64,000 nucleotides of DNA from Perkinsus olseni (GCA_013115125.1 JABANN010000068.1:1-64000); one strand, 5' to 3'. Shown: positions 2,403-62,843, numbered from the stretch's first letter. The notes: generated from the sequence alone by a model not told the origin. Numbers and translations: made by a program.

Positions 2403-5400
2403 GCGACAGTTTGAAGCTTGGGGAGAGAAAGCGATTCAGCATCTCCATGGACCCTTCATCGAGGGTTCTGCGGCAGAACTTCTGCCAAAGCTTCTCTAAT
2501 GTCTTTTCTCCGCAAGCTGCCTTTCTTCAAGTGCGGCAGGATTCCAAAAAGGGGCCGTCGATCGTAGAAGTGCTCTAGTCGACTCCCTACGCTGGAGAGT
2601 ATGTCACTTTCTGCCCAGCTATGCACCGTTTATAACCAGCGGTAAGAAAGAGCTCGCTGACACTGCCTTCTATGGTCTCAATGTTGCGGCACTTGCAAGG
2701 CCCCGAGAAAGATTCCTGAGGAAGCCAGGTAGCAGGTGTAGTCATTCAAGGATAATTCAATCCATGATCGATTATCTAGTCAGGCTTGCAGTATTCATAT
2801 CGCTGCCGGTGGCCGTCATTGCCCGGAGTGTCGCCACTGCATCCAGCAGGTCATCCGTATTGGCAGGATACATGAGACAGTGAGAGCACAGCGCGTACCC
2901 TGATAATTGACTTGCGGAGTTCTCGCTCTAGCATCAGTCTCTTATAGGAATTGAAGCGGATTCCTGTCGGCCTACCAATGCCTTCGAAAGATGCGGAGCG
3001 TCTGGAGGTGGGGAGATCTTCGGAGCAGTATCTGGCATACGCGTGAGATTATTTTGCAGGCTGCAGCTCCAGGAAAGCGAACGAGCACAATAGTGTTTGA
3101 CAACCACAATGAGTGACCATGCCTTGCGACTAGTCAATTACTACTTCGTGATGATACAAGTCTTTGATGTCGTGCTAAGTCAATTAAAAGTGTAGAGAGA
3201 AATCTTCATCGCCATCGGAGCCTCTAGTAGTGGACAATGGCATTTCGATGTTCCATCGAGTAGGCCAAGTTGGCCTGGCCAACCGACATACCAACAATAA
3301 CACGCACCGCCACAACCGCTGACTCCCTAGTGACAAAACTGCGGCATGAACTACGACTAGTAACCCCTGGCTAGTCGCCACTGGCGATCAAACATTCTAA
3401 GCACCACCACGCCGCTATATGGAAGCGCGTTGATAGAGACATGTCATGGCGATCGTCTTTAGAGATCCTCACCGCTTTGAGAGCGGCGCTTTCCGTCGTC
3501 GTTCGTGGTACCATTACCAGCAGCTTGCTGGCAGCAAGCGGCTGCAGTGAGCAGTAGCTGCAGTTGAACTTCATCAGTTCTACAAGGAGCCATCTAGTAT
3601 CAACAGTACTCAACGCGTTAAGTCTCTAGTATTTACAGATGGGTAACGTTCGCCACATTCATTCCTTTGATTGCATTGTCGGCCTGACTCGAGACGGCGA
3701 GGGATTTTAGGCCCGTTGTAGTGCTCCAGTTCTTCTGTTATCTTCCTATTCTCACCTTTCGACAATGTCGAGTCGTTGAAAGGTGAGGCGGAGCTACGAT
3801 GAAGAGAGCCTGCACTACTATTACTAGTAGCAGTCTACTACCGCCCACCGATTCCCAGATGATCACCTCGTACGCTTCCTCACGGAGCGAACACTGATTT
3901 TATCAACAAAATTTCCACAGCTGTCACCGAGGCAGATCACGGTAGCTGCTATCAAGGAATGGCAGAAAGCTAAACAGTAAGCCTCTTGACGGTTTCTGCT
4001 ATGTGCCGCATCAACGACCCTGCGAGAAAATGCTTGAAAATGTCGATGAGTGGGTATGGTCAGAGTAACTAATGCACCAACCCGCTGTCTCAGGCGCCCC
4101 GATTCTGGTCATCCATGTGAATCAGCTACGCGTGTCCGGCGGCAGTCAGCTATGACGGGGTACCACTCGAACTTCACCACATCTGTGTGTCGTACAGTGT
4201 GAGCTAATAGTACAGGAGTCGGCTTTGAGATATCTGACGGACAAGCAGTTTGCAGACTGATGTTTAACCAGTAACTTGCTTGAGCGATAGTAAGGTATTA
4301 GTTCGCTTGTCAGACCATCGGGTCCTTCAGATGAACAGGCGTCATCCAAAAATGCCGCAGAGTGAGGCTTTGTGACTTGATAGTTCCTCTCAAGCAAGTC
4401 TTGACTCCAGTGTTGGGAAAATCAGCTTATCCGGGGCATGTTATATTCCTGAGGCTTTATTCGCTCCAGTTTTTTCCATCTGACAATGTCAAACGACGGA
4501 AAGTTCCGCGAGCACCTCGAAAACTCGGCAGATTTCTATTCCGGCTTTGCCAGTCTTAGTCCTCGTCAAATTGTTGTCGCATCTATTACGGAATGGACTT
4601 TGAAGGAGAGGTGACGTAAAGTCGATCAATCGCCTCACCTTGAGGTTCATTTCGCGTTTCTTCGTTCGCAGGCGTAATGGAAAGGCTGCTGGAAGCTATA
4701 AGGCTGCTTGGACACGAGCACTCTGTAAGTGAAGTTATACTGCCGCGGTATGTTTGCCAATCGAGTTTATTGGATCTCCGCTCGTTAGCTGCAGCAGCTC
4801 AGAATCTGAGCCTCAGATGCTTCGCAGTTTTCATACTAAAGAGTCCTCAAAGTATGATGCTATCCAAGTGATAGGAGTAGTACGCCTGCTTGGAAGTGAT
4901 TTCGTGGTTTTCTCGCGAAATACAGTGGAGATGCAACTAAAAATCGCAGGGACCAGATAAGCACGGAATGGAAAGAAATCCGATTTCGCCAGCATCCGAG
5001 TTAGCTCTGACAAGAATCATTCTTTCACAGAAACTACATGTGGTTCTTGCAATCAAAATTTTATTGTAAAATGCGACTCCTAGTACTCTAGCGCTAGGCA
5101 GCATATGAACGGGAAGCTCCCCATGTCCCCGCTATGTGGGCATGGGCCTTCATTCGTAGATTTTCTGTATGTAGTACTCACTGAAAGCTCTTCAGCACCT
5201 TTCCCGGTTTTGTTTCATTTGTCAGGCCTTCTCTGAGCACATCAGCGATCACGCCCAAGAGTGAAGTCATCACGGTACTGGGGGATGAGCCACGTGACGC
5301 AGTTGATTCGGAGAATCCTGAGGGCCCGGCAAAATCGGAAATCAGTGCGGAGTCGCTCGAATGGACGGTGAGAAACGAAGCAGTATTCTCGGACTCTCGG

Positions 5401-6023
5401 GTTGCGAGGGGAAACGCGCAGCTCTCAGCTCTCAAAATTTGCGGGGCAAACAGTCCTTTTGGCAGGATGTCGAGACCCGTGCGACACGGAGGCATCTTCC
5501 CAATAGCTATCGAATTTTAGGATTCTATTCAGTAGGGTACTACGAGGTATCCCTGTACATTTCGTTTCGTAACTCGTCCCAGTTGGAGCTAGCGCCGAGA
5601 AAAACAGGATATTCCATAATTATTTGGAGGGCTGTACAATCTACAACGCCTCATCTTAGGGAATTAAAAAGAACGGCCCTTGACGGCGCTGAAGGCCAGG
5701 TGAATGAGACGGCGCTCGACCAATCTTGGAGTGAGTGAGGCGTTTCTTGAGAGGGTGGATTGCGTTGGGCCGAAACAAGCACCCCATGCCTGTTCAGCTT
5801 TCATTTGTTCCCATGGCGGTAATTACTACAGCAGTCTAGAGAAGTCAGTGATATCGTCATAAGCTGGGTCACTTTCAGTCTGAGAGTCTCAGAGAGTGAG
5901 AGAAGGTTGCACGAAGAGCTGAATAGCCGCCGCCATCTTGCGAACAATTTTGTGTATGATCTGGGTGAAGTCGTTCTGTTGGACTCGGCTCCGGCTAGTT
6001 CTCCTTTCTAGTGTCATCATCAC

Positions 6024-8268: not shown

Positions 8269-11200
8269 ATGGCAGAGCTAGCGGCAGCCGGAGCGGCTAT
8301 GGCGAACGGAGCCGGGTCGCTGTTTTCGTACAATAAGGATGTCTTCGTATTTGACCAAACACTGCGCCAGCAAAAGGTGCATCAAATTCAGAACATTCGA
8401 TTACAACAGGTGATAACGGGAGAAGGAAGGAGACTTATGAAATTTCCCGTTTTTTCGAAAAGTCTTAGAGATGGATAATGCCTGTGTCAAATAGTGTGGC
8501 GAATTATTTGAAATTTGCTTACGTTTGAAGACGCTTTCCCGTGCCGTTGCCGTGTTACGCGGCGTAACTTACGCCCTATGAACTTGAGTTGTTTATGCGT
8601 GCCTGTGTCTGCCGGGTAATCGCCTTTGACCCGACCTATAATATCCCCGGATACATATCTTCGGTTGCTGGCAGGTCGGTCTGTACCGTGAAGATCTCCG
8701 CGACTTATTCGGTCTGACCATATCGAAGATGGATAATTATCTTGTGGTCAACACCCTCATGTTGGGCTTCTGCATTGCTCTGTTTTACGATGGAGTGTTG
8801 CCTCAACAGAATCCACCATGGCTGTGGTGGATGTGGTAGTACCTGGGCGAGGGTCTGTACGTCGCTAGGCTACCATCGAATCGCGCTGTAGTCATTTTTG
8901 TAGAAACTACTCAAGACCGTTGGGTTATTTTCGGTGACGTCGACCAGAAACGCAGAACTGTTTTTCGAGAAATGGTCTCGACTGCCATTTTCTTTTGCTT
9001 TGATATAACTTCGCCATTTTTGCCTTCTTCACATTGCGAGAAACTCCACATCACGTATTACGGGTGAACCTTCAATGCATTCTTATCGCTCAATCTACTT
9101 GAAATTTGCGAGCTTCTCTTCCTTTATGTGACTCTCGGAGCCTTCGATTTCGTACTTGAAGTTTTTTCTGTGATTATCTTTAAACTCGTCCGTAGATTTT
9201 TTGAAATCACCGTCGCATTCAGGTGCCTGGATCTCTCCGGTTCTACGATTTTTTTATTGATATCCATTTGGCTATCCCTGCACGCATCAATAACGGCTCA
9301 GTCGATGGTGGTGAAGCTGCTCACTCAGTGGCTGAGGTAGTACAGGGGATCAAAATTTCAGGATTTTATTCGTCGTGAATATCCTCGATCTTACCTGCCT
9401 CGAAATTTGTTTTTGAGAAAAATTATCCCTGGTTTTCGGGAGTGGAAAGGTTATAATAAAGAATCTGGCTTGAGTTGCTTTCACGTTAATACTTCATACA
9501 AGATAATTCTTCAAAAAAACCTGAGATTGAGAACCTACAGAAGTTCCCTTGATGAGAAGAGTTACTATTCTACCACACTGTCGCGGGAAATTTACAGAAT
9601 GCCCACTTGGTGAGGGGACTACCAGAGCTGCTCGTGATGAGCAGATCTCTGCAGCTTGGAGTATTGGAATTTGCCTTTAGTGCGGAGCTGCTGCTGCTGC
9701 TGCTGCTGTCAGGTTGCCGTTGCCTCGGACGGAGGACATCGCGGCTGCATCGGCGTCTATTGAGGTAGTAGAGGGGTTGAGCGACTGTCGAGTGGGTCGA
9801 ATGGTGCTGAGTTAAAATATTCTATAAAAACATCAAAAAAATATCTTCCAGAAATTATCTCAGAAAAAATATCCAAGAAATGTCTAATAAAATTTTACCA
9901 AAAAATATGATTATGTGGTGGATTAAATCTACTTTTCGTGCGAGATTTTGTCTAAAATTACGAACTTACGAACAATTCGTATAATATTGTATACGCAAGG
10001 CAGACGTTGTTACCACTTATTTTACGTAAAATTGGAATGGTATACCGGGGGTATTGTAAATTACTCCTGCTCGTTGCGGGGGGAGACTCGGATGAATTCG
10101 TGAATTGGCAAGAATAGTTTCACGATGTCATCTCGGCCCTGTTATATTACAGGATTACGAGTGCTGTCCAGTGTCGTCAATTTTGCGAATACCCGGGCTG
10201 CAGCGTCTGGACCCCCGGAGGAAGAAGGTGGACATGGATGATTACACGAAGGTTGATAAGGACGGCCGAGTCAGTAGCGAGGGGGATCGATTGTAATATG
10301 GGTATTAAGATGGAGCGGTTGGATCTAGGGAAATCACAACGTCGTTTCATTTATGAGTGTTGAAGGGAGCGTGGCTGTGGTGACACGCTCATCCGTGTCA
10401 CCGTGGTACCACTGAGTATTTTCAGGTACCACATACACTTCAAGTTGTTCCAGCACGTGCAGAAGTCCTGGCAGGGTTATGATGCTTACGCGAGGGTCTG
10501 CATGGCTGTGGGCACAAATCAACTTTTGCTCACCCTCTGCATCTTTGCTTTGGGGTAGTAATCGCCGAGTAGCTTTTCGAAATTTTGTCGATATGTTTTC
10601 GAGACTTTTGATGAGAGGCATGATGAAATTGCAGATCCAGTTGATGGGTATTGGAACCCGAACGTCGTGGTGAATAAACACCACGACTGAGTATCAGTAT
10701 CAATTGGCAAGTATATTCTCAACTAAGTGCGTGGCAACCTCTCAGCGTGTGTTCATAAGGTGCACGCCAGTGTAGCCAGCGTTGACCCATAACTGGGAGG
10801 GGAAGAGGTATTTGTTGTTGTTTTTTGGTACTATGGTGATTTGCATAACGGTTTGGTTCGCACTGTACGGTCGCCGCATTATCGGGAAATCTGTTCATTA
10901 TGCGCAGCATTAGAGTCGACCGTGGCTTCAAAATGCTGTTATACTACAATCTAGTCGGATATTTGTTGTCTCCTTTGCGGGTTGGGAGAGGAATGAATAC
11001 CAAATTTTCGCCAAATCATGAAGTGTCTTGTAGGTCCACTCTGATTGGAGATCGACAGCCCTGGGCAGCATGGGTGTTCATCGTCGTCGTGGCGACAGGA
11101 GCCATGCTGCATTTCCGAGTTAACTTAACCCTGACGAAATGGGAGTTGGTCATCATGGTCGCCCTTATTTACGCAGCCCCTTTGACAGCTGGCGTGGCGG

Positions 11201-19951: not shown

Positions 19952-20948
19952 ATGGACGGGCTTGAATCATTCGGTGGCTTCGAAAACAGTTTTTTGTCTG
20001 AGGCTGAGATGGCTCGACAAGGTCACTTCAACCTCGTTGTTGATTTGAAGACTACGAACAGGAAGTTCGAGGATGCATTACTACCTCTGGGGCTGCGTTA
20101 CCTTGTCATGCAGTACATAGGGAAGAGAGATTCATTGGGTTTCGTGACGAAACTTTCGTCATTCCCGACGACGACTGTGAGGTGAGGCTGCTGTGTGGTG
20201 AATGCACCGAAGAGTTCCCGAACTCTTTTATTGGCTACGTTGTTTGGGTGGCCGATGATCCCAAGCACCCTGTAGGAATAGAGTGGGATGCTGTCCGCAT
20301 GGAATACGTACCAAATCCGGCAACGCGTTGGCTCGGGTTATATAATCACGTCAGTGACTGACGGTCAGTCTGCGCTATGACTGCGCCTACATGATTGAAC
20401 CACCTGACGATAGTCGTGGTTCGCTCTTATGGGAGCTCAACGTGTTCACCAAAGTATGGCGTTTAGTAAGACGGTTGGGGTACACGCCTGTTCCTACTAT
20501 GTGCTTTGATGTCATTCGCTTCGAAGATAAGCTGAGGGTGCCTGTTGTTGATGATCGTGGGAAGAACATAAATTTATATGTCTGGGACGGGCTGGGGGAA
20601 AAGCGTACGATCGAGTGCACTGGTGTCTCGGCCGATCTCTATAAAGTATGGTTCGTGACTCCTGATGTGGTGGTAGCTACTACTGCCCCAAACGACAAGT
20701 ATGGTGAGTTGGTCCTCTGCCACGTAGGGGTCAATGCGTCGAGATTTGATAAGAATAAGATAGCACGGACTCGGTGAATGTGGTCCGAGTCTCCAAGGTT
20801 GTGTTTGAGCCGTTGCGGCCATTGCCTGCGCTTAAAGCGCTTTTGCGATAAGATCATCAACCTCGACAGCACGATGCTTATGATGGCTTATCGAGCAGAG
20901 GCATGCGAGGTTTTCTTCTTATCTCCTATTTTTCGACAAGTCAGCTGA
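19952..20948 (+). pseudogene. Lineage-specific hypothetical gene (weak F-box-like N-terminus) frameshifted by a 14-bp insertion
   Basis: LPLGLRYLVMQYIG motif. Open frame 20221-20355 joins the frame of ORF 20391-20777 only after removing 14 bp of the motif at 20349-20370. 3' end uncertain. Confidence 0.45.
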
Positions 20949-21765
20949 TTTTGAATGAGCCTCACTTGGGTTACGGCTCCCAAGATGTTCAGAGGGCATT
21001 ATAATATACTTACCTGTGTTAGGTTACATAACTCAGCAAGAGCCGTTCACAGTGGTTCTCAAGTTGTAACTACTATCATAACATCAATAGGCAAGCTACT
21101 TTAGTTAGGGCGAGAGTCGCAAGAGGACTCTTGGAGTCAATTGCGTACAGCATTTCCTGGTAGGGTCGCAACCGATTCGACTGAACCGAGATTCGGTTAC
21201 CGGTGGCTGAGGCGACCTCAGTGAGGCCCTGGCGCCGTACACCTGTATAATTGTTGCTGACAGCAGCAGCCTGCTGCCAGCAGGTGACAGTGTTGTCATT
21301 GCAGTCACTTGGTCTCTAACAGGTGTCCCCGATATCATTATTTTTGCCTCACGCTTGATTCTAGGGTCCTCGAGCTTTGAGACTTCGGAGTCCTGAAGAG
21401 TCCCTGTAGATCAGCCTTCCAAGTCGGTGTTATCCTGCGCCACCTCTAGTTCTACAGTTTAGTGTCAACAACTGTTACTGAACAACGCAACCCGCCTTAT
21501 CCGTTATGAAAAACTTTTCTTCAAAATTCTAATCGGGCTGTAGGAATGAAGCTAAGAAGCCAACTGATACCTCGGCGACTGGAGCTGAGCCACCGGGTCA
21601 GTTGGCAGGTCAGTGAGGCAAACTCGACCAAAAGTATCAAGTCAAACTTGCTTGACGGGAGGAGAAAATGAAGCCCGTGAACTCTGACGAATTTAGGTCA
21701 TGACCGAGATCCGATGAAATAGGATCTCGTCATCACGAGATTATGTACATAACCGTCACAGAGTG

Positions 21766-26625: not shown

Positions 26626-26840
26626 ACCCCTTTGATATAAAGAAGTAGACTCTTCTTAGTGTAGCGGCCTGCTATCAGCTCTCCAGACTTGCCCCGGTCG
26701 ACATTGGAGACTCGTGTTGGTATGAGTAGTATTCTACGAGTTCAGCTAGCGACCTCGAATATTCATTCGCTGCGCAGGGTTTCAGCTTTCTAGTCCTTCG
26801 AGTTTCATCGGATGAAATTCATCCCACGTTTAGCAATTTT

Positions 26841-45200: not shown

Positions 45201-48200
45201 TCTCTTTCGACCTCGCCAACGAGTATAAGCGGAAACTAACTACGAACAAGTACTCGACCACAAACGTGGACGTAGTCGAGTACTTGTTCGCTGCTAGTAA
45301 GCATACTAATACTAACTTCAGGGGTACAGTTTACCCGGTACATCCGAGCTTCAGTATCCCGGCCGTCAGAAGGGTGAGTGTAGTAGACCGAAAGCCTAAG
45401 TCCTCCGTAGTAGTCCAGATTCCTAAACTTCGGCGCGCTGTTCATTAGTCGATAGTCGAACAGGTAAATCAGTACTAGCGGGCACTAAGGCTAAGTCGCC
45501 GTTTTTTGGTCCATAACTTCTGGTAAAAACTATCTAGTTGTGAGTCACAACTTGTGATAGGCTATTGAAAAACGACGCTTGTGGTCACAGGTTGGTGACG
45601 CCCACGCTGGGTCATGGTTAGGAATCCAAACTTGGGCTATCGGTGGTTTTGAGTTCCTGATGGTGATGTTATGGATGTGAAGCTACCCGTTCTTCGAGTA
45701 CCAGATGGTGTGTTGAGCTTAGATACACTGAGAAGCGTGCGTCACGCCGCGAAGATGCCACCAGTAACGCAGCGTGACTCAGTTCATTACCTCTGGCTTC
45801 GTCAGCGACTTCGGCGACTGTTTCGAGTTAGACACTCTCGGCAGGCTAGCTAGCTGGAGGCGAGTCGAGGCTATGCTCGCTATTAGAGGCTATTGGTCTC
45901 AAAAAATAGTGCCGGTGTTCTGTCTATTGCCCCGCTACAACTGTGAAGGACTACTAAGTCCCCATCGCTGTTCACCATCCCTACCAGGGACTACACACGT
46001 TCTACAAAACTATTCTCTACTCGGTGACTAAGAGCGAAGCTGTTGCCAACAACGACTTCAAGACCTCGGGCGAACTGAAGTCACTGCCCGCTGCTCTGGC
46101 TAACGTCTACTACAAGAACGAGCATTGCTCCTGGGAGTTCCTGGCTGGAATACTACCCGCAATCACTAACCTGGAAAAATGCCGATGAGGAAATTGCTAT
46201 CGAAGCAGTTGAATTGACAGTGTCAATAGCCTCAATAGAAGACCATGTCACTGACGGCTACCAAACCTATCTATGGTGGGTGAGGGGCCATGCTGGGCAT
46301 AGGTTTAACGAGCTCAGCGACCTGTATGCAGATTCTGCACACATGATACGCGGCCCGTAGCGGCGCCCACCGTCGGGAGGTGGAACTGAAGAACGAACCT
46401 TTCTGATTTCTACTTTCTTAAATAGTCTGTCTAAACTACTTGGTGAATACTCGTCGTCAAGTTGACGACGTCAACGCGTTTAACTAGAGCAGCTAACGTA
46501 TCTAGCGTCGCCAAGGCGCGCCCATCCTAGAGTGACTCTAGTAGAGTCCAGGCTTGCACTCGGGAAACATTGCTAAAGAACACCCGCTTCCTATCACCTC
46601 AGCGCTGGCTGCCGTCCATGCCGTATTGCACTTCGCCATTCTACTCGAACTTCTCAACTGGGACTCATGCAACCTCGAATGGACCTACACACCAACACTA
46701 TCCTCACATTTTGGGCAAGGCAAAAGATCTCAGTGCCCTGTAACCTCCTCGGGTCAACAGAAGATACCATAACCAAAGGAATCCCAAGCCCCCACATCAA
46801 GAAAAAGTCGTCATTTTCTCCGGAGATTTTTCCGCCCAAAATCTCCCTTTTATCACATCCATCATCCACTCGTGGAAATGAACTCGCTTCTTCGCCTCGA
46901 CCGCAACATGCTGGTAGAATAAGTCCATCAACATCGATTTACCACTACCGCAACCTCCCCATAAGTACAACCTGAGAATCAAGAAAACACCTTTTTTCCG
47001 TCTATTCGAAAAACCCCGGAAATGTTGTATTAAATTTCCAAATTTTTCGCAGGATGATCAAGTTTCACATTGAATCGACCGACGGTCGGTCGGTCACCGA
47101 CCGGTAGATACAATCGGTAATTTTCGGAGAGTCGGAAAATTTTTGTCGAGCTTTTCTGAAACCCTATAATTATTCCGAGAAGACAAACTCCATGAGGGTG
47201 AAGACTTCCAAGCTCACCGATTTTCCGAGTTGAAAGAATACCTACCCTCGGAAGGCCACTGGAGGTATCTCAGGTCGAGCAGTGGCTGCTGCAGAACCAC
47301 CAAAAAATCGGCTGAAAAATCCTCCGCTACTATTGGTGGTCTCGTTAGCACCATTTAGTGTTGATGAACCTGGGAGAGAAAAAATAAGACGGAGACTGGA
47401 AATTATCCGGGCAAGTTTTGTGAGTGAGTCTATAACCCGACTCAGTCGGTACCGGGTTGCACAAAAAACCAATTCTGAAACTCAGAATCGATCTTAGAAC
47501 CCCTGCATCCTATGCGTAAAAATCATTTCCAGAATCGATTCCAGAAAATCAGTATATTGAATGGGGTGATATGAAGACGAGAAAAAGGAAAACGACAACA
47601 ACATGATTTTTCTCCTCATCCTCTTCTGCACTTTGCCGAAAATTTCGACGAATCCTAAGATGCTCCCTTTCCCAACGGCGATCCCTAAAAACTCTAGTTG
47701 CATGACAGTCTATTGGTCATGAGTTCAATCCTCAGACCGCTCATTTGGCTAAAATAGTGTGGGCCTACGTTACCCGCTCGAACGCTCATGAATGCTCTGG
47801 GTTGAGTACTAGTCCGCAGCCATTTTAGATCGAGGACTCAGTTATTCTGTCTGTTTGGTTTGACATCCCTTAACCGCGACGACTCGTTACATCCCTTCTC
47901 CCAGTATTACCTTTTCCAGTGGTCGTCTGGGTCGAGGTGGCCGCCGTTTCTTCCGGTGTAAGCTGGTTATATGTTGGAGAGTATCTTTCGAGACCCTGAG
48001 CTATTTCATTTAGCTTGATGACAATAGATTCTTGCTTCTCATCGGGACTGAGTTCACCTGAAAAATATATAATCAAGGGACGGATGATTACGTACCATCT
48101 AGTACAGCTGAAAATTTCCTTGGATTGATTTTCGAGATGAATTTCACACAAAAGCAGATCGAAAATATCAGACTAACGAAGAAAAGAAACAAAGACCATC

Positions 48201-49426: not shown

Positions 49427-52400
49427 ATGGCTCCCAAGAAAAGGATCTCCTCCCGACTGCTGAGCAAAGGCCACTTCAGCGAAGAGGTAGTACTAGCAAC
49501 CGGGAAAGTGCGTTTTGCGGAATTTCCACCAAAAATTGCGCTGGAGCGCTCGTGTATATGAAACCGCGTGAGAGACCATTGCGATCGCTGCTGAGAAAAA
49601 CGCTCGTATGAAAGACAGCGCAGGTTTTGCTATGACTTTGTCGGTGCTTCTGCTGCCAATTGCCGAGAAAGTGTGGTAGCCATTGGCTACTAGCCAAATA
49701 ATTTTAGTTGGGCTTCAATTGTGAAATGGACGGAGGAATAACTTGTTCAGTGATGGGGTCGGCAGCGATGACAACTGAAGCGGTTGTATTCAGGAATCTT
49801 GAAAATTTGTTAATAGTTCAGAATCAGGAACTCATTAGTAGGATTTTTTCAAGTTTTTTTTCATTTTCCGGTTCTCCAGAAAAATTGAAGCGCCGGCGCT
49901 TGTTCATACTGGATTAGTAGAAATGGAAGTCAGTAAAATCGGAATGATGTTTGATATGGAAAATTGTGCAAATGGACGCAAACGGTCAAGGTTGCAAATG
50001 ATGAAGCGATGAAAGTTTTCTGAAGGGCTTTGTAGAGTAAAAACTGTACAGTCCTGTCAAAGAAAATTGGCCAGAGAGAAATCGGGAAGGTTATCTGCCG
50101 AGTAATTGTAAGCAATCTGTAAGTAATTGTAATTTGCAATTTTCTTTGACAGGACTGTATTTTGTTCAACCTCTGGTCTCTAAGACTGCATCCCCGAACA
50201 CATTCTTCCGAAATTAAAAAAATTCTGAGGGGAAATCCACTTTTTGGTGGAATGTCGCCGCGTGAAGAACTCACTGAAGTCAGTGACTGTTCGGTCCTCA
50301 GCTGTCCTTCGTTCAAGCGGGCTTTGCTACCCCCGACGGTGGGTCTGTGGACTGTCCCATTTGCCGAGAGGTATTCGGCGATGAGGAGGTTGGCGGTATG
50401 GCAGCTATGGACGGCCCGGCAAGATACGCTCTCATGGACTGCTGTGAGCATCCATTTCATGTGGGGTGCTTGGAAGTAAGCTCGCAGAGTTGTCTTCCAA
50501 CCATTATCATGTTTTTAGTGAAAATTCCGATTTTACGTATTTTTCGAATTTCACGAATTTTCATCGGTGAAAGGGATCGTGTTGGAAATTCTAACCAATC
50601 GAGCAAGAAAGCAGTTTTTCGGTAAATTTCTGATTTTTTGGTGGAATTTTTTGGATTTACGATTGTTTCAGCATTGGAGTACCCAGCGGGAGAACTCCTG
50701 TCCGAGTTGCCGAGCCACCATCCACTATGTTGCTGAGTACAGTCTGAGTCGACCTGAAGATTCCTCGAGGGCGGACTGGCGATTGATGATAGAACAGGTC
50801 ATTCAAGTGCAAGAGGCCAAGCAGGCTGATACATTGGATGAGGAGGAAGACGGGTAGTTAGGGATTGGCGGATGGTGGGAGGGCGTTCACTTGCACTCTT
50901 GCATTTTCTCAACGATTCCTCGGTGTGAATGGAATTCTTGAAAATTTAAATGGACACGCAAGAAATCAATTAACCGACAGAGAGGATAAAACCCGGGATT
51001 TGCGATGGAGAGTTCGACATAATATCCTCTTGCACAGATTTCCTTCTTCTGAAGAGTCGGACGCCCCAACATATCGTTGTGTGATATGTGGGGACTCCAT
51101 CATCCAAGCAGCCCCTGCTGACCAGAGGGGAGTAATGCTCTTATGTGACGCCGAGCTTCCACGCAAGAGGACACGAAAAGGGCCGTCCAAAGTGATGACG
51201 TGCGATGCTCCATTCCATCCTTTTTGCGCGGGATATCCGAACGTCCCGGATGGAGAGGTAATAATAGGGAGAGGGCGGCTTACGGGTTATGCATATTTTA
51301 ATAAAATAATTTTATACGGCTTCGTCATCCTCTCGGAATCCAGTGCGTAGAGGGTTGTCCGCTGCAGCTCCTCTCTTCTAATGGGGAGATTTGAATATCA
51401 CTTGAATGGGTTAATGGGGTGAATTTGCTGTTGTCACTCGCGAGGTCGCGAGTTCGATCCCTTCTCAGGTTTTTTGTCCCCAGCACAGTAACCACCTCCC
51501 TCCTCCTGTCGTGGAGGAGAGTATCTCCTCTACAGTATCATCGCCCGCCGTGTCCAGCTCGAGTGCTGAGCCGAGTGAATCTTTGCCGTGCGAATCTTTG
51601 CCGTCCGACGTAAAGAGCAAAGAAATTGTTGAGCTCGGGACGAGCAGCGAGGAGGATGAGGAAGAGGAAGAAGTGAAAGATACGCCGAAGGAAAAGTCGC
51701 GAAAGAAGAAGCCAATGGTGGTATTGCCGACGTATATCACCGTCACTGCGCCACAAAATTGGGAGGTTGCGATTACAGTCGGCGTGTCGAACAGTGTTGT
51801 TGATGGGCATGCGGGCGATGAGAGCGGGTTGGTGAGGGAAGTTAAGAAAGGAGTGGTAGAGGCCATGCTGAATTGGAGGGAGGTATTAGTTGAGAAAGGA
51901 GTGGTATGGGAAGCTGAACGCTTCCCGACACGAGGGTATTTCCAGCTGGACTTCGCCGATAACACAGTCGCCACCGGCAAGATGATTTGTAAGATTTTGA
52001 GGTCGTTGAAGTCCGCTCAGGTGAGTTATGATAAGAAAACCAAAAAACTTGGCGGAGCGAATCAGACCAAAATTACATGGTTTCTATCCGACCTCGACGT
52101 CTCCGGCACGAATCTTAATCCGATGGAAGTCGGAGAAGTATCTTCTCTTTTGTCAAAGCTAAGCTCCGACCTCTGGCCATCAGTCCACTCTGTACCCCTT
52201 CACTTCAAAGCTCTCCGTCTTGCGAGGCTCTCGGCGGGCGGGAAGATGGCAGCCGCAGCAAAGTTGAAAACGGCGGGAGTTGATGTTGAAATCGGGAGAG
52301 GGGAAGTGCCTGAGGAGGACTTCCTGTTGGGAGCAGTCCCGAAGGAGAGGAGAGCACGGACGTTGGGAAGGAGGAGGAGGAGGGCTGGACGGCCGAGGCA

Positions 52401-53067
52401 AGCGGTGCAGTGGCGACCAATGAAGGGTGGTAGCGATTCTGAAGACGACGGCGTGAAAGATACGCTTATGCAGGCAGCTCGGTTTGAGTTGAGGTCGACC
52501 AGGGAAGATACACAAGTGAAAGATACCCCGCCGCCGCCTACGGCGGGAAGGTTTTCTCTTTCGCAGCTGCTGGGCGCTCAGACGGTCTATCAGAAGAACA
52601 TACGGCAACCGTTGAGGGGGCTCAGCTACTTGGGAGCTCCCCCGCCTACAGAGCAGCGTCACGCGCCGCAAACTTACCCCATGCAGCGTCGCCCGCCACA
52701 AAATTATCTAGCCAACGATCATCATCGACCCTTCGAACAGCCTCGTAAGGCCTCGAGTCCCCCCAGTTCGACGACGGTCGATCGGACGGTATCAAATTTT
52801 GTGGCGACGATTTGCAAGGAGCGCCGACTGATAAGCTGGCCTTCCTCACACTTCGATGGTGAGGTCGAAAAGATATCTAAAATGATGGTTGAAAAATATT
52901 CGTGTCTTCTCAATCACGACGGTGGTTGGAGGAATTTGATTGACCATCGGAGGGGGCGATTGGCTGAATGGATTGAAGAGAAAGTCGCAGCGCGGAAGGC
53001 GGCAAGAAGTTGCGAAAAAGTTGGTTACAACAGCGGAGCGAAGTTTCGTAAAATTGGATTGGGATGA
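49427..53067 (+). CDS. RING-H2 + PHD finger protein (PHRF1/SCAF11-like architecture), multi-exon
   Basis: CPIC...CCEHPFHVGCLE|HW...SCPSCR (RING-H2); CVICG...LLCD...CDAPFHPFC..VPDGE|VFCPQH (PHD) in frame with ORF 51511-53067; helical C-terminus possibly SRI-like. Confidence 0.8.
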
Positions 53068-55349
53068 TTGTGATGATGTTTTTCTTTTAAAATTCACTAC
53101 TGCTTGTATTATTTTCTTGTTTCTGGAGATTATCGTCCAGCGTTAGTTAATTTCGTGGTGCGGTGAAGGCTGGTCGATACTCTTTTACTGTGTCTCTCTG
53201 AGAGACTCTCTCATATTGGCCCGTATTTTTCGTCAGTCGCGGACTGGTTCTACATACTCGTGCCGAAACAAAATCCACTAAACCCTACGCCGGGTACTAC
53301 GACGCCCTCAACAATGTGCAAGAGACTAAGTGGATTATTGCCAACTCAAATTGTGTTGCCTTATCCCCGCGTCGGTGACGCGGGGATAACCCTCGAGAGT
53401 AACGGCGTTCCGTTCTGAGAGTACTATTCTTCAAGAATAATTCTTGTGGCAAGGGTTATCCTTGAACAAGGACCGTTTATGTGCGCAACTGCGTAGGAAG
53501 CACAATCGACTATGACCAACTGGCGTAAAGAATACCGAGGGCAACATCGTTCACAGCCCTGACTCAGGGCCCCTGAGCAGCATACGTAGTTCATGCATAA
53601 TGGTGCTCAGGGGCAAGGATGGCCGACAAATCTTCGGCCAGGATTTGTGTAACACAGAAATTTTCTTTCTATGTTTTTCTTCAAAAAACATTGACCTCAT
53701 AATCTTCAAGTTGGAGATTTCACACATGACCGGATAACGCACATCGCCTTCTAGCCAGTTTTTATTCCTTCAGCCCAAGTATCCCTCTGGATTCATTGCC
53801 GGAGTGGTTGGCAATTGAAGTGCTGTAGCGAAGAATATCAGATATTCAGACCGCACTGCCAAAGCTGATTCGCTGATTATTCTTCATCCTCCCTGAAATT
53901 GAAATCCTGCACTTCTCGGAATAGTACCCGAAAACAGCAGCTCCGAGCCGCCGGCCCACCAGACAGCTAAGATCGAGTATCGAGCCTGCGGATTGTCCTA
54001 AGGTGTTTTTCTCCTGGTAGTCAAAAGTAGCTCCGGATTCCTATCCGCATCGGCAGGTACCCCTACATAGATGAATAACGCTTGCGGATGAGCTCCGGTA
54101 TGACACTGGGGCAGGTAATCAAATCAGTGGAGGCCGACGTCCTCATCATAACGAGGCCGAGCTTGCTCAGGTGACCATGGAACATAGCAGGAACTTTCAG
54201 GGCCTGAACTTCAGGATAGGCGTCGAAGGGCGAATCGGCAAACTGCGGGGAGGTTAGAGAGCAAAAATGCAAGACAACTTGATTAGAACGGAACACCTAT
54301 CTCACAAACTAAGCGGATTTGGGAGTGATATCGCGATCGGATTGCGGCGATCCATAATACACGAAGAGTGCATGAAGGCCCCTCATTGAGAGTCTCAATG
54401 AAGAGGAGAGAGAATAATAGGCAACTGGTCGTGCAATTATTGGTATTGGCTGATGATTGGCTTCCTCTGTAGGACTCCGGCTTGGAAAAACGGACTTGTC
54501 TGCAGGGGTTCACCGGAGTATCGCATATGTGACCGAAGAAAGAGGTCGAATGAAGGAATTATATCAAGGTCCCACGGTCAACTTCCTGTCTTCCGCTGGA
54601 GAGTGAGAGGCTCTCACTGAGAGGAAAAAGGCTCGCGACGCTGCCCTCGACGGCGAGAAATTACGTCGAACTTACCATCGGCTTTTTGTTCTGTTCAACA
54701 AAAAGCTCAGAGAAAATAACCGAGAACGATGATGTTTCGAGATTGCTGGGAGATTAACGATGAGGTTGAGGAATAAGATTGCCACCCAAGTGGGTCCGGC
54801 TCACTAAACTAAGTGACTTGAATGAGATGTGTAAATTGAGTCAGTTTCATTGCATCTGAGGCTCAGGAGAGTTTGCTGGACACATACAGATGAAAAAAAC
54901 TCTTCGAAACAGAATCAAGTATCACCCTGTGTGGAGAACATAGTAAATCTGAGATCACCGGTATATACAGTAGAAGTTCTTAGTCTCTCCTCTCAGTCCT
55001 CCTCCTTGTCGCATAGTCAGTGACACTGGGTTAGTGTACACTAAGCGTGTACCGAATCGCAGTTTTCACTCTAAAATAGTGCACCGACGTAGTTTCTAGT
55101 TCTCTCTCAGTTTCCGTTTAGAGTTTCTAGTCTATTGATAGCATGGTTGCTCAATGGCCCCCTTATCCAGCCGGCTCAGACAGTCGCGGCGATGAAAGGA
55201 GAGCGGTGGTGGCCAGAGAGGTGTGGAATCTTCGTGCTTGCAAGCCGCAAGTTGCAGCTCGATGGCCTCGATATGTATGCTTGGTAGGTGGCGCCAATGG
55301 ATATTGTTGTGATCCCCAAGGAATCCTTGGCAAGGATCCTGAGGAGTCC

Positions 55350-55640
55350 TCAGGGGGGACTTCCTAGGGAAGTCTTCCCTCGAAGTAGAAGACGAAGGCA
55401 AGCCGAGATATGAATGCCACAGCGAAAGAGTGTTAGGGCGGGAGGATCGATCTCAATGTACAGTCCGGATATGAGGAGGGCTGTAACATGCGGATTGTTG
55501 TATACTCGGGACGTGAGATAGGTATTAGCCCGGCGGTCGTCCCAGGCCCTTGCCCACAAATGGACTACAGTGAGAGTACAATTCAGAGCGTCGTGAACCT
55601 CTGCGTTCACGATGCCCATCGAAGTGCTCTCAAAACATGC
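55350..55640 (-). mobile_element. Possible degenerate LTR-retrotransposon integrase fragment
   Basis: SMGIVNAEVHDALNCTL...AWDD...RVYNNPH loosely matches the integrase NG.VER.H..L...WD....YN..H pattern. Confidence 0.3.
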
Positions 55641-58600
55641 CGCGAAGTCCTAACAAACGTGAGAACGGTAAAATCAACCCGAAATTGAGCGTCACTCAAC
55701 TTCCGCTTCTCAGAACGTCGCTACTTTCACTCGGCTAAAAACCTCGGAGATTACAAGGGCACTCTCGGTGTAGTATCAATCAGCTTGATTGATACTCCAG
55801 CGCCGGCGAATGAGCGGGACGAGATAAGAGCGAAACTCCCGTTTTAGATTTTCGGAAGACTTTCCCAAGAAGGACTCCTTCTGAAGGAAGCATTGGGTTT
55901 GCTACCCTGAAGTGAAGATTGGTGTCAACACTAGGGTCAACTAGGGTTAACAATAGCATCTCTAACGTTGGCGATGAAGGCGATGCAATAGACGTGGATG
56001 ACACTAAAAGTGGTAGAGCCGATGACCCTCAATTACCACCGCAGGCTCCATAGGGTGATAGAGAGGAGACCAACAGCTGGTTCAATCAATGTTGACGATG
56101 GCCTGGCACTGACTGCCAGTCAGTGACTGAGGAAGAAGAGAGAGTGCGCAAAATTATTCTCAGGAAGATAACGAAGAAGCAGCAATAGGAGTATGAGAAG
56201 AGGTTCTCTTCTCTTCGAGAGAAGAGCGAGTGCGAAGGCTACTGAGAAGAAGAAGCGAAATATGTAGTGTAGGTCGAAAGTTTCGAATCGACCACCCGTC
56301 ACAGTTTCGACTCGAAACTGTGACGGTCAAACTGTCTTGACAGTAGTGTAATGACAGTGATAGTCACGATGTCAGGCTGATGTCAGTGACATTGTCAGCA
56401 CAGTTAGCCCGGGAAGACGTCACAGTGATGTCTTGTATTCGCCTGGAAGACCCACATTCTAGCAGTTGAATGATGCTTCTGCCTTCTGGCTATGAGCTTA
56501 TCTACCCGGGTCTCGGTTAGAGCTTTACAATTGTCCGGACTGCGGGCTAGTAATTAGGCAAATTCCCAGCCCGCGCTCTGGTCCGAGCTACTGGTTCACA
56601 GTTTTGTGCTCGCCCGGGCCGCGGTTTTGTATAAACCGTTAGCTCTGGCCAGCGTATCATCCTAATCCGCCTGTCCCACTCCTCTGTGCATGCCATGCAC
56701 TGCATGGCATTGCACAAGAAAAGGAAGAAGAAAAGCTCACCTCCCGTCACAACTCTTCTGTCTACTCGTTTCGGATGTCACTGTTGTCATGTTAATACCC
56801 ATGATCCGCTGATGTAACATCAGTGATGTTAGTGACGAGTAACGATGATTCATCGTTACTTTTTCTGTGTAAAGAAGGCCGTTGTTTTACTGAGGGTGAA
56901 ACCATCGCGGCAGGGGGGCGTAGTCACACAACCCTGCACTACCCAAGCTAGTGGTTTCCCATGATGATTCTGGTTCTAACTGCGGTACGATCACCAACCT
57001 CTGAAGTGATAGATTGTGCACGGCAGTCACGAGGAGTGGTCCTGCGGAGACGAACCACCTTCCAACTGTCTTTCTTTTCGGTTTCTTTATGCTACACCGC
57101 CGTGAGTGGGTCTGCGATATCCCACGTGATCCACCCGTCGCCTTTCGGGGCGGAATTCAACCCTCCCAGTGGGAGGCTCCCACCCTTAACCTGAACCGAG
57201 TCTGCGGGTGAGCCATGGTAGCCCTGCCATAAGGGGTCCCAGGCTGAACGAGTCAAGCGTTTGCGTGCATGCGTGTTCGCACGCCCAGCACTCCGGTGCA
57301 ATGGCAGATGGACCGGTGTTGTTCCCTTGCCTGTTGTCTTCAACAAAAACACGTGGCGCGTGCCCTGTTCAGGACTGAACTTCAGGTATGCCATAACCGT
57401 CCCTTTCTTCCAGTCCCCGCAGTCTGAGGCTTCATTACTTTATTACCCCGACGCATTACACCGTTAACACATTCCAGCCGGATTAAATAATACTCACAGC
57501 GGAAAGAGAAGACCCTGAGAATTCTGCTGCGTACGGAAGGGTCGTACTACATTACTCAGTCAGTAATACTCACGGTGAGTAACTCACCCATGTGCGTCGT
57601 TTGCCGAACGACTGACTCGCCGAAGACATCCAACATGGGGGAAAAGTGACGGCTAAGCGAAACATTTGTGCATCGCGGACATTGCAGAAGCGCCGACATC
57701 CTGCGTTTGGACAACAGAATAGCTTTCTTGCAAAAAGCGGCTTTCACCGTCGTAGATCGCAACAATTGCAAAAGTTAAAGTTGCGAAAGCACGGCCACGT
57801 TGCAAAAACCACTTCACCCGTGGTGGTCCGCGAGCCCGGATGCGGGAGAGAATATGCTTCGCAGTCAGCGGCAACGAGCACACGGTTGGCTGGGTGGAAC
57901 TGCCTAGGAAATCACCGGCTTGAGAAGACAGCGCAGCGAGAAAATTTTTCGGGTTGCAAATTTTTCCTGGAAAAATTTGAAACAAATAACAGATAACCCG
58001 TAGCATAGACATCAAAGAATGTGGGCGCTAGTGTCCCTGTTTGTGACGCTCAGCGTCAGACGCTAAAGGGATGACTTACGACACAAGTCAGTGTCACCTG
58101 CTTCTCCGAAAGACTCGCCTGGCTTCGCAAAGGCTACGATGAAATTTTTGTGGAGGTGAGCAATCTTCCTGTTTTACCAGCGTTAACGAATGAAATAGGA
58201 TTAACATTCTCCCGGAGTCAGTCTCGGGGGGGGACATTTTCCGGGGGACATCACCAAATAGGACAAAGGTTATGTCCCGCAGCTTGCCATGCTGAGCTTG
58301 ACTGAGGCCTTCCTTTCCGCCTTCAGCGTCCGTGAGGATAGCGTGGATCAACACTCTCTTCACTCTTGCTCGGTCATCTGTTATACTCTCCTTCCTTCGG
58401 AACGCTATTCGGGCATATCAGTTCCACCGAATCGCTTGAGTCATAGGCTGTGACCCGACCCCTGCGACTGCGTGCTGTCGTGTACGCAGGCGTTAAGGCG
58501 ATGAATGAGGGCCATCACAACAGCTTAGGGTTCTCTTTAAGAGTGACACTCTTCTGGGTTTCTCTTCTGGGTTTGGTGACACTCGGGGGAGACAGCCAAG

Positions 58601-58695
58601 AGGTCGCCTAAGCTTGGTAGATAATCCTCAACTCATCTGCATAAGTCAAGGACAATCTCCTTATCAGCTCGCCGTTGCCCTTATTTACAGTGTGA

Positions 58696-59887
58696 ATGAA
58701 TTTTCCCCTACTGCTACCGTTTTTGTGGTGGATGGCCACTCAAGCTCTGGTAGCCGTTACGGCTCAGACCCTCGCCAAATTCGCTCACTACCACCCAGCC
58801 TACACCATCACGTACGATTTTACTGAAGATGGTTATATCTCTTTGGTATTTGAGGTCCCTCAAGAGGCCTCACCGTTCTATTTTGGCAGCATGCAACTGA
58901 GCGGAGGCCCCGATACATATGACATCGACTTCCTGAACCCGGATAAAGGGCTCAAAGCCCTATACGATGGCATCCGCGACCAATTCCCTCTTATTGACAT
59001 CAAGCCGGGGGATTTGACTACTCTGACGGTCGTCGACGAAAGAGTCTTTGCCCACCTTCAGGGTCGGAAGATAAAGCTCGAGAGATGGTCATTCCCTGCT
59101 CCTGGTGTCTTCGAGTTATACTTACCTGGGCCCGAAGAAGTCGAGTTCATATTCGAGATAACAGCTCACGCGTTTGGGTTGGTGAAGTTAACCCTAACTT
59201 GTAAGAATATGATAGAGCAAGGAGGCCCTGGTATCTCTGATGCTGTGACTGGAACTTTTGCTCTCACCGAGCAGTCTTCGGGTTCCCCTAACCCATGGTT
59301 TGAGCTTGAGGATATAACAAACCCGACACTGCCTCCCTCCGATGAATTCCCCACCTTGGAGCCGCTTCAAGAAGCTTTTCGGGCTAGCTGCGCTTACCCA
59401 AATCCGTCTGATGACGACTTTAAGCTTGTGGTCCCCTTTTCTCCCGACACCGTTTATATGCAGGCTTACACTTATACAGGAGAACTCTACCCTCTCACAA
59501 GGATCAGCCACACCCTTCCCCTTGGCGTATTCACGTATATGGAAGATGTGGACCCCTTCACTCTGGTGCAATACATTTTTGCGGACCCTGTCGGTGTGAA
59601 CATACAGAGTCTGTAGTCTGCCCAGAGTCTGACGTTATCTCCACTGGATATCTGGATACTCGACTTTGCCATCGGGATGGCGGTCAGGTATTTTGTATTG
59701 AGGGCACGGGGACATCTGGAGATCAAACTTCTGACACTTTGGCCATATGTAGGGAACGATGCCCTGGCTCTCGTCTCGCTGAGGGAATCAGCTTCCACTG
59801 GCCCAGTGGCCCTGGGTATTCGCCCCCACGCAAGACGCTATTTACGTGCCGTTTGAGGAGACAACACTACGAATTGAAAGCGACTAA
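58696..59887 (+). pseudogene. Lineage-specific secreted protein paralogue 1, with two 3' frameshifts
   Basis: Signal-like MNFPLLLPFLWWMATQALVAVTA; colinear with 61684-62843; frame breaks at ~59605 and 59795-59816; homologous stop at 59885-59887. Confidence 0.7.
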
Positions 59888-61683
59888 AAGGATCAGTAAT
59901 TTTGATGCAGTAGATGATGGCGTGGTGAAGCCGGCCGAAGCTATTTCTCTTGAGCTGGACATTTATGATCTTGATTCACTATGATGAGCAATATCACCGG
60001 AAAATGTATTTCATGAGAGTCCCCTAACACGGTCTCTCACACTTAGCAACTCAGTCTATGGGTCGCAGGGGTTTTGAACAAAAGGTGATGTTGAGTTACC
60101 AGTGCTTGTCAAGTGCACGCCAAACAGCCTGTTTGAGGCAGGTGTGACACCAACCGTGACACTTTTAAGCCAGTACTCTCGTAAGGGCGTCCAAATCAGT
60201 AATCTCTAAGCCTCGGAAGGCTTGGTTGGTATTCCCGACCCGAAAGTTCAAAAGTGTCAGATTCTGACACCCTTCGACTCCGAGAGTGTCAGAGTAATTG
60301 GCAGAAGTCCGGCCCCCCACAGTCAGAATAATTTAGCTTCAAGTCGTTATTGATTCCAACTGGGAAATCTGGTCCACCTTCGGGCTATTCGTTCTCGGCA
60401 TTAGACTACTCACCGTGATAATACATGTACGAGTTGCCAACAATCCAATGCCCGCTACAGGATTTTTCAGTTCCATGTCTTATTGATATTACAGTAATAG
60501 TAATATCATATTGCTTCTCACGTTTTGCATTTAAGTAATTTCATCCGTGTGAACTCATCCGAGTAATTTCATCATTATGCACCATAATGATAGAAGTACT
60601 CGGATGAGTTCACACTGGGATAATTTGTGACACAGCATAATTTATGCTCCGCATTTCGTAGCATAGCAAGGGAATGCAACAACAATGAAACACAGCTTTT
60701 CGCCCGGGCTCCCCTCGAGGCTGGTTTTTGCTTCATATACTTTTGTAGTATCGAGTTCGTTTAGGTAGACGCCCCACAGACTGATGATCACAGATCTCCA
60801 AAAAGAGACGAAACCTGCGCTTACTCTATCCTGCACTGAAGTAGTCACGTTCATAGCTATGCAGGAATAATGTCGAAACGACGCATAATAGGACCGACTT
60901 GAGTCAAGTTACTTGACTGCTATAACATATAACTTATCTCGCTTCCAGATTCTCGAAGATCCACTCTATTACAGTGTCCGCCCATTAGTCGGTACAGTGT
61001 CACTGCACCGATTAATGGGCGGACTTCTCATCACGGCCCTTCTGTCTACTCGTTCTAGTGTCACGGGTCATTCCCGATGTATATGGTGACCATACTATGG
61101 TCCAGCTGCGGATGGGCCACCGATCGACTGGAGTGAGACTGTCGCCTATCGTCACACACAGTGTGGGTCCATCATTGCTTTGTGTATGTTCGTCATTCCA
61201 ACACATTCCATTGCAATAGCGGGGAAGTTTGCGGTGATCGGTAGACAGCCGCCCCTGTCTCCCGGAGACAGTCTCCGACGGATACTCTTCGCGGGACACG
61301 ACCGAGTGTGACATAGCTTGGAAGCCCACATCGCGAGTTCCGATCTCCTTCGCATCCAAGAGCTGTAAGTACCTTTTTGAGAAGTACCCTTTCTACCATT
61401 TCTCACCCATCCACCCTGCTGTCCTTCCTCCGAGACTTCGTTCAAGGTTAATTTCAACCCAAATAGCCGTGACCAGAATCTGCGTCAGCGTACCGCCCTG
61501 CACGCAAGCGTCACTTAAAGGCGTCCAACGCTGAGTTTAATATCGCCTTGCATGCTGCACATTGTGGCAGGGGAGAGAGTGTTGAGAACTTCGGTTTGGC
61601 TTGGTGAATACCCTCCATTCGCTCTACCCCGGCCGCGGTGGTGCCTATCCTTAGTTCATCATTGACCTTATACTTCATTTTCG

Positions 61684-62843
61684 ATGAATTTTCACCTACT
61701 ACTCGGAGTAGTCTACTCCCGTCGTTGTGGTGGATGGCGGCTCAAGCTCAGACCTCAGGCAAATTCGCTCACTACCACCCAGCCTACACCATCATGTACG
61801 ATCTTACTGAAGATGGTTACCTCTCGGTGGCCTTCGAGGTCCCTTACAAAGAACCGGTGTTCTACTTTTCGGGCATGCGCCTTAGTGGAGGCCCCGGCAC
61901 TTACAACGTCGACTTCCTCAGCCCTGATAGGGGAGTTGAGGCCCTCTACGATGGCATCCGCGATCACTTCCCAGCAGCTGACATCAAACCCGGAGATCTC
62001 GCCACGCTGACGAGCGACGATGATGGTGTCTTCACCGTTTTTCAAGGTCGAAAAATACAGTTCGAAAACTGGTCGCCATTCCCTAATCCTGGTCTTTTTG
62101 ATGTGACCTTGCCGGGGCCTGAGGGGTTCTACTTCAGAGTCAAGTTATCAGAGACTGAGTTTGTGAGGATAACCGCCACTTGTAACAACTTGAAGCAGCA
62201 AGCCGGCGAGGATGCCACTATTAATGTGGTCCTGGAGCTCAGTCCTCGCCACCCCGTAGGCTCCGACGATGCATACTTCGAACTCAAGGACCCTAAAGAC
62301 CCCCCTTTTTTCGCTCGGTACCCTACTTTGAAGTCATTTCAAGAAGCGCTTGCGGCTAAATGCCCTTACCCGAATCCCTCAGAAGAAGACTTCAAAGTAT
62401 TGTCCACATTCTCACCCAACACCATCCTCATCCAGGCCTTCGCCAGCACAGGAGAGCTCTACCCTCTCACAAGGAGTAGATACTTCCTTTCGCCCGGAGT
62501 GTACTCTTACACCGCGGACGTGGCCCCCTTCGCTACACTCACATACCGCCTGGAGGAAGCTACTCGACTGAACATCGATTGCTCGTGCTCGGGGTCCGCT
62601 GTCACCACCAGTGAACTTCACGTTCCCTACCCCTGCCGTCGGGATGACGGTCGAGTCTTTTGTATCAGTAAGAGGGGGATTACTGGTGATTTCACCTCCG
62701 AGAAGCTAGCCTTGTGCAGACAGCGATGCCTAGGGTCACGACTACTTGAGGGAATCAGCTTCGATTGGTTCTTTGCTCCCACCAAGGATGCTATGTACCT
62801 CCCGTTTGGGGACACACCACTACGGATTAAGCGATCCGCGTAG
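61684..62843 (+). pseudogene. Lineage-specific secreted protein paralogue 2, signal peptide frameshifted
   Basis: ATG 61684 (MNFHLLL) is homologous to the paralogue 1 start but out of frame with the long ORF because of a 14-bp insertion at 61698-61719. Also an 18-bp deletion in the signal region. Confidence 0.7.

Follow-up and report, generated by a model that had tools for sequence, protein, structure and literature searches.

A fixed 22-bp palindromic scar in Perkinsus olseni DNA, a probable excision footprint of a hAT-superfamily transposon

Perkinsus olseni is a parasite of molluscan shellfish. In a stretch of its DNA of 64,000 nt (GCA_013115125.1 JABANN010000068.1:1-64000, hereafter the window), a full scan found 29 perfect copies of a 22-bp motif of the form X(1-7)+revcomp(X)+X(2-8), in which X is a different 8-mer in each copy. 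It is very probable that these scars are footprints of some hairpin-forming element, of whatever family, that duplicates 8 bp of its target, and, with rather less assurance, probable that each is the donor-site footprint of an excised cut-and-paste transposon of the hAT superfamily. The first-pass annotation of this DNA had read the motif as hAT excision followed by hairpin-annealing repair dominated by microhomology. The annealing of flank hairpins is well supported by the results described below, while what we infer from the form of the scar is the enzyme family, the site of hairpin opening and a joining pathway dominated by microhomology, so that the hAT agent is a predicted one.

The motif was found to be confined to a single geometry. 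When the length k of the repeated unit was varied from 4 to 13, k=8 gave 29 copies versus 0 in each of five shuffles, which is the sharp peak that had been predicted, whereas k=5-7 gave 0-1 copies and k=9-13 gave 0 in the real sequence; k=4 gave 29 copies versus 10-19 in the shuffles. Copies with 0, 1, 2 and 3 mismatches numbered 29, 16, 18 and 39, versus 0, 0, 0-1 and 4-6 in three shuffles, and this tail is that of a motif family mutating away as natural DNA does. The shuffles preserved mononucleotide content alone, a weakness that is compensated by eight decoy geometries searched in the real sequence (even-centered 24-mer, even-centered 21-mer, 2-nt offset, direct, complement-only, mirror, k=7 and k=9), seven of which gave 0 copies and the eighth a single match, an A/T-only chance overlap with a genuine copy. 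The resulting density is 0.45 per kb for perfect copies and 0.70 per kb when at most one mismatch is allowed, above the earlier figure of about one per 3 kb. All 15 perfect copies that had been listed before were perfect on rescanning, and the seven listed one-mismatch copies (3517, 21207, 54332, 55359, 58044, 59795 and 61081) were recovered with one mismatch each, but 14 further perfect copies had been overlooked (starting at 1429, 2465, 4797, 20139, 25152, 44956, 49676, 51294, 55316, 56686, 57162, 57567, 61256 and 63388).

The same geometry emerged from palindromes counted independently of the motif. Seven-base inverted repeats with a 1-nt loop occurred 88 times versus 3-4 in shuffles, whereas those without a loop occurred 4 times versus 3-4; similarly, odd-centered palindromes with an arm of 7 numbered 63 versus 2 in one shuffle, and even-centered ones remained at background (13 versus 15 in the shuffle). 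Of 119 odd-centered palindromes with arms of at least 6, 76 pair at a center spacing of exactly 7. The palindrome centers in the scars are single bases, c8 and c1, the complements of X8 and X1. When only this frame was required, that is, X1-7 and c8, any spacing D, then c1 and X2-8, D=7 returned 38 matches versus about 1, and every other D from 1 to 60 returned at most 6; the fixed 22-bp product makes up 38 of about 45 recognizable footprints. Additionally, 8 of the 16 single mismatches fall at the two junction pairs, although these make up 4 of 22 positions and about 3 mismatches would be expected there, suggesting that some imperfect copies may have been born imperfect.

Comparison with other samples of the same species demonstrated that the scars are recent and polymorphic between isolates. 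Contigs of two such samples, X6 and X7, were compared with the window over 44900-64000, and the counts obtained are lower bounds. At the scar 53192..53213, exactly 14 bp are absent at 53193 from X6 (57.8/57.8 depth) and, in part, from X7 (78.2/131.4 depth), so that the absence is heterozygous in one isolate. At the one-mismatch scar 59795..59816, exactly 14 bp are absent at 59798 from both X6 (83/83 depth) and X7 (58.6/58.6), and deleting these 14 bp leaves the single 8-mer CCACTGGG. The X6 contig spanning 61674-62542 is also shorter by 14 bp and, since 61698 is the sole motif in that interval, this implies absence of the scar at 61698; another X6 contig, over 49676, is shorter by 14 bp near the contig end, where the placement is uncertain. 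By contrast with these absences, the X6 and X7 contigs over 61031-61579 contain 2 gap letters only, and the scars 61081..61102 (one mismatch) and 61256..61277 (perfect) are therefore common to both isolates. X6 and X7 contigs also carry net extra letters at 50554-51425 (+20, with 20 gap letters) and 56312-56740 (+6, with 34 gap letters), which may be scars that the window lacks.

A paralogue within the window provides a further empty site. The gene at 58.7 kb, aligned with the scar 61698..61719, shows an exact 14-bp gap and retains one 8-mer, so that empty sites reducing to a single 8-mer, as had been anticipated, were seen both in a paralogue and in other isolates. A P. olseni protein from another assembly gives the same picture for the perfect scars 20139..20160 and 20349..20370, which shift the frame of one coding region twice. 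This protein, P0006 (77% identical), crosses both positions in one frame, its match on the window passing through frames 2, 1 and 3, and in silico removal of the two scars fused three open reading frame (ORF) pieces into one 272-aa frame, a fusion given by 46 of 2000 random double 14-bp deletions. A second protein, P0005 (93% identical), encodes the shifted middle segment between the two positions, indicating that another assembly has both scars too.

The form of the scar can be derived from a series of steps, a base-by-base derivation that is our own and starts from published hAT properties. A transposon would insert, producing an 8-bp target duplication X...X, and would later excise. At both 5′ ends the transposase would nick the flank 1 nt away from the element, as in published hAT chemistry, and the flank 3′-OH would then attack the opposite strand, generating two covalently closed hairpins, the left one with X1-7 joined to c8..c1 and the right one with c8..c2 joined to X1..X8. 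Host nucleases would cut each hairpin at least 8 nt from its tip, leaving 3′ overhangs whose last 8 nt are revcomp(X) on one side and X on the other; being perfectly complementary, these 8 nt would anneal, and flap trimming together with the filling of two 7-nt gaps would yield X(1-7)+revcomp(X)+X(2-8), with a net gain of 14 bp. On this reading, flank hairpins in Perkinsus appear to be cut at a distance from the tip and nearly always joined via the longest microhomology available.

Several features of the window correspond to what has been described for hAT elements. These elements produce 8-bp duplications (PMC10368747, PMC5499845), and here only k=8 is enriched and the empty sites hold one 8-mer. 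The available text on Ac/Ds footprints describes palindromic insertions centered on the complement of the base adjoining the transposon ends (PMC5873905, PMC1978519), the arms reaching 20 nt in yeast and 85-100% of the cases showing microhomology (PMC5873905); here, the palindromes are centered on the complement of the duplication base that adjoins the element, and the canonical junction is an 8-nt overlap. A register-slip variant at 47077..47102, recovered by the frame-based search, shows the same junction in shortened form. In this 26-bp copy, already singled out in the first-pass annotation as a 4-bp slippage and confirmed to be 4 bp longer than the canonical scar, X is GACCGACC, which contains an internal 4-nt repeat, and the two palindromic tracts overlap by 4 nt out of register, the product expected from overhangs annealed one repeat out of register. 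Three other variants retain the frame X1-7.c8 ... c1.X2-8 with tracts that are longer, or shorter and incomplete, and with filler: a 46-bp one at 56273..56318 (X=GTCGAAAC, palindrome arms of 6 and 15 with filler between), a 31-bp one at 56369..56399 (X=ATGTCAGC, arms of 4 and 5) and a 74-bp one at 28705..28778 (X=ATTCCGAA, arms of 6 and 9, about 44 nt of filler). At the first of these, X6 has 12 letters in place of 51 bp which, read against the window, are the left flank, a single GTCGAAAC and the right flank. Such variants partly explain the solitary long odd-centered palindromes of the window.

The target sites themselves are weakly biased toward GT....AC when symmetrized, with G at X1 (C at X8) in 36 of 82 cases (chi2 19.0) and T at X2 (A at X7) in 35 of 90 (chi2 9.8). 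Hermes and hobo are reported to prefer 5′-nTnnnnAn-3′ and to make 8-bp duplications (PMC10368747, PMC11226609), and the bias found here may be regarded as compatible with that hAT motif.

All the ingredients of this process are known from Ac/Ds, Tam3, hobo and Hermes, and what differs is the near-deterministic, very abundant and still polymorphic outcome. Ac/Ds, as studied in plants, Saccharomyces cerevisiae and Candida albicans, shares with the scars the 8-bp duplication, palindromic (P-) nucleotide tracts centered on the element-adjacent complement and, as predicted for Perkinsus, a flank hairpin, hairpin opening and microhomology-assisted joining, according to the portions of PMC5873905 and PMC1978519 consulted. 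However, Ac/Ds footprints are described there as heterogeneous, with tracts mostly of 0-3 nt: among 128 Ds excisions in Candida there were 28 different footprints, none with a tract longer than 3 nt (PMC5873905), and in Arabidopsis one short footprint was common to 11 of 17 (PMC1978519). In the window, one product predominates, with both tracts full-length and an 8-nt overlap, at 0.45-0.7 per kb of native genome. Hermes and hobo also form a flank hairpin (PMC5499845), in addition to the duplication length and preference given above, but the additional preference for G at X1 and for C at X8 is local to this window, in which neither a transposase nor an element was identified. In V(D)J coding joints, closed flank hairpins are likewise opened off the tip to give palindromic additions, a parallel drawn in PMC5499845 and PMC1978519. 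The Perkinsus palindromes differ in being odd-centered, with 7-nt arms and an 8-nt overlap supplied by the target duplication; RAG hairpins yield even-centered palindromes of a few nucleotides. A comparison of the close genomes of Oryza sativa and O. glaberrima also read excision scars from sequence, yet simple excisions accounted for 8 of 94, the rest having deletions or filler, hAT excision events were rare (5 and 4), and no stereotyped product is reported in the text available (PMC4423477). In the literature searched, we found no description of such a fixed footprint, although the same product might be listed as a single event in supplements or in the footprint tables of Lazarow et al. 2012 and Yu et al. 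2004.

Against an origin in hAT excision stand several results that concern mainly the missing agent. No transposase domain was detected by Pfam in 165 six-frame ORFs (16 of at least 150 aa and 149 of at least 85 aa) of the 192 of at least 85 aa in the window. A strict search of the window for an intact element with terminal inverted repeats (TIRs) and an 8-bp target-site duplication (TSD) returned 0, and a relaxed one returned 3 versus 3 in a shuffle. A multicopy stretch at 56.9-57.7 kb, without element ends, contains a single exact 8-mer pair, which lies inside the repeat and compares with about 0.9 expected by chance. No occupied X-element-X allele was seen among the matches listed for the isolate contigs over 44900-64000. 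In the literature searched, neither hAT elements nor scars of this type were found to be reported for Perkinsus; the Perkinsus transposon literature that was found, as far as its available text goes, deals with Dada, Merlin and Tc1-like elements, and none was found on non-homologous end joining or Ku70 in Perkinsus. Additionally, classical short footprints with D of 1, 2 and 3 are scarcely enriched (2, 2 and 1 versus 0.4, 0.4 and 1.4), so that the repair outcome is unlike that of the hAT hosts compared, and the target bias is weak, being drawn from 45 sites only.

Since no element was seen in the window, its family is open to a second candidate, which we consider unlikely: the same hairpin annealing could have been set off by another cut-and-paste superfamily with flank hairpins and 8-bp duplications, such as a Mutator-like element (MULE) or an undescribed family, or by a domesticated transposase. 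The MULE Muta1 is reported to form hairpins in flanking DNA and to make 8-9-bp duplications, MULEs in general making 8-10 bp (PMC5499845). However, the duplication here is strictly 8 bp, neither k=9 nor k=10 giving any copy, and the Mutator-like pattern of 8-10-bp, often 9-bp, duplications with mostly precise excision is not that of the window. In yeast, over 90% of Muta1 excisions were precise (PMC5499845), whereas the window shows scars, a one-sided view because precise excisions would be invisible in it. Moreover, hAT elements are the ones for which a 1-nt offset, T at X2 and A at X7 have been described (PMC5873905, PMC1978519, PMC10368747), and no statement was found on where MULE enzymes nick.

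An origin independent of any transposon, in which a repair or replication polymerase switching template or snapping back at a break would copy 8 nt of the opposite strand, was judged quite improbable. Breaks are known to give rise to templated inverted insertions, and such an origin would agree with the lack of a visible element in the window. Nevertheless, nothing in it sets the length at 8, and k=7 and k=9-13 gave 0 copies. Snap-back requires a loop of several nucleotides, and the scar palindromes have one central base. The GT....AC bias would not be predicted either, nor would variants in which X1-7 and X2-8 enclose two separate palindromic tracts.

Still less probable is that the motif has a function and that selection preserves its structure, as a hairpin signal or as a tiny RNA-level insert, in place of a neutral scar. 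Two overlapping 7-bp stems are possible in every copy, and hairpin-bounded non-canonical introns have been described in the related Amoebophrya (PMC7789003). On the other hand, X differs in each copy, the copies decay (29/16/18/39), their presence varies between isolates, three of them are frameshifts in or beside coding frames (20139, 20349 and 61698), and the P0005 gene model of another assembly is translated straight across the shifted segment. An artefact of assembly or sequencing, which the first-pass annotation had kept in view and which some library artefacts that generate palindromes might have suggested, is excluded for practical purposes, being contradicted by independent contigs, in which 61081 and 61256 are present while other scars are missing by exactly 14 bp, by a protein from another assembly that encodes the segment shifted between 20139 and 20349, and by the existence of mutated copies.

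The scars, taken as hAT excision footprints, are not evenly spread. The largest gap between neighbors is 18,153 bp, a value attained in 0 of 5000 random placements, and 14 neighbor gaps are of at most 250 bp, which was matched in 12 of 5000. Several scars are adjacent or nested: a perfect one at 57567..57588 sits on the third segment of its older one-mismatch partner at 57552..57573, its target being the earlier target moved by one base, and the perfect scar at 55316..55337 opens a run of three (55316, 55339 and 55359, the last a one-mismatch copy at 55359..55380). hAT elements hop locally, and the clustering and the nested and adjacent scars fit repeated local insertion. Two stretches are free of scars with up to one mismatch, 8576-20138 (11.6 kb) and 26825-44955 (18.2 kb), the latter containing all three tRNA genes and an EF-hand exon; selection, chromatin and insertion preference are candidate causes.

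Most scars appear to be non-coding, since collapsing all perfect ones barely lengthens the ORFs, from a total of 6713 to 7125 aa. At least two, 20139 and 20349, break a reading frame, and three lie in or beside the gene for a RING protein: 49676..49697 in intron 1, 51294..51315, composed of A/T only, in intron 4, and 53192 just past the 3′ end. A metagenome scan with an alignment of this RING protein gave 598 pattern matches, 0 of which were confirmed. The scar at 61698 follows codon 7 of an upstream ATG (61684), and with it removed the reading from that ATG matches the paralogue; gene models P0007-P0009 all begin downstream of it, for which reason it may sit in the leader and not in coding sequence. 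The paralogous genes, at 58696-59613 and 61684-62840, share about 51% protein identity (P0009 versus the 61.7-kb copy), and both begin with a hydrophobic, signal-peptide-like segment and match no Pfam family. An extra 18-bp segment in the 58.7-kb copy contains an odd-centered palindrome (center 58758) that falls outside the 8-mer frame.

A more far-reaching proposal, to which we give little credence, is that a still-active, locally hopping element writes deterministic +14-bp frameshifts and that the scars reversibly switch genes of a polyploid parasite. Each scar carries 6-7-nt direct repeats around a hairpin and could, on this proposal, be precisely deleted again; by analogy, it could also be removed from RNA like the hairpin-bounded introns of Amoebophrya, and the switched genes would include the secreted-looking paralogue pair at 58.7 and 61.7 kb.

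If the excision reading is true, the genome holds a dense, datable record of past transposon positions, of a kind that footprints elsewhere are too variable to provide, as they cannot be recognized without the element. Being polymorphic between isolates, the scars are ready-made strain markers, and on the excision reading they would also inform on DNA repair in Perkinsus. A rough steady-state estimate of our own, based on 29 perfect copies in 64 kb and on any change in 22 bases counting as loss, is that scars form at about 1% of the point-mutation rate per base; if this holds, they would be a sizeable share of all indels.

The remaining perfect scars given by the motif scan are distributed as follows. 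Toward the start of the window lie 1429..1450 (X=GTGGTATG), 2465..2486 (X=GTTCTGCC), 3262..3283 (X=AGGCCAAC), 4797..4818 (X=GCTCAGAT) and 8554..8575 (X=GTTACGCC). After the pair at 20139 and 20349 come 21263..21284, 24933..24954, 25152..25173, 25490..25511, 25972..25993 and 26803..26824, and beyond the long scar-free stretch 44956..44977, 46454..46475 and 46527..46548. Downstream of the RING-protein gene are 53425..53446, 53556..53577, 56686..56707, 56809..56830, 57162..57183, which falls within the multicopy stretch, and finally 63388..63409. The mismatch scan added one-mismatch copies at 3472..3493, 3517..3538 (overlapped by a 2-mismatch copy at 3524), 5872..5893, 21207..21228, 24549..24570, 45537..45558, 54332..54353, 54603..54624, 55868..55889, 56109..56130, 58044..58065 and 60896..60917. 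The mismatch at 24549 is at the X8 junction pair, and paralogous copies diverge at this position in the alignment.

The multicopy stretch, delimited at 56366-57760, reaches a contig depth of 400-1100 versus about 60-75 elsewhere in three DNA runs, with many contigs breaking at 56884-56916, 57237, 57381 and 57640. Neither Rfam nor Pfam matched it, TSD/TIR ends were not found, and three scars lie within it (57162, 57552 and 57567).

As for the setting, a 550-aa ORF in the window is 100% identical to an NCBI Perkinsus olseni protein and has a P. chesapeaki relative at 59% identity. Long ORFs are few, GT..AG introns are present by contig comparison, and tRNA genes number two by Rfam, which returned nothing else in the window, and three by ARAGORN (37141, 39583 and 41823); the few long ORFs, the three tRNA genes and the introns indicate nuclear DNA. 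Pfam over the window ORFs gave weak RNase H, EF-hand, AFG1 ATPase and weak RING matches, two stray weak matches and nothing else. The RNase H matches, under the Pfam cut-off, lie at 1688-2455 (minus strand) and 46079-46357 (plus strand) and are possibly retroelement remnants, and the EF-hand exon lies at 42246-42521 (minus strand). A gene at 46683-48395 (minus strand), with four GT..AG introns and an exon for an AFG1-like ATPase (46800-47057), is backed by contigs from a run presumed to be RNA. Finally, local segmental duplications with 79-95% identity (14460-14822/19042-19401, 21481-22290/23747-24540 and 22475-22770/26325-26622) point to a possible gene family duplicated in tandem in the region from 14 to 27 kb.

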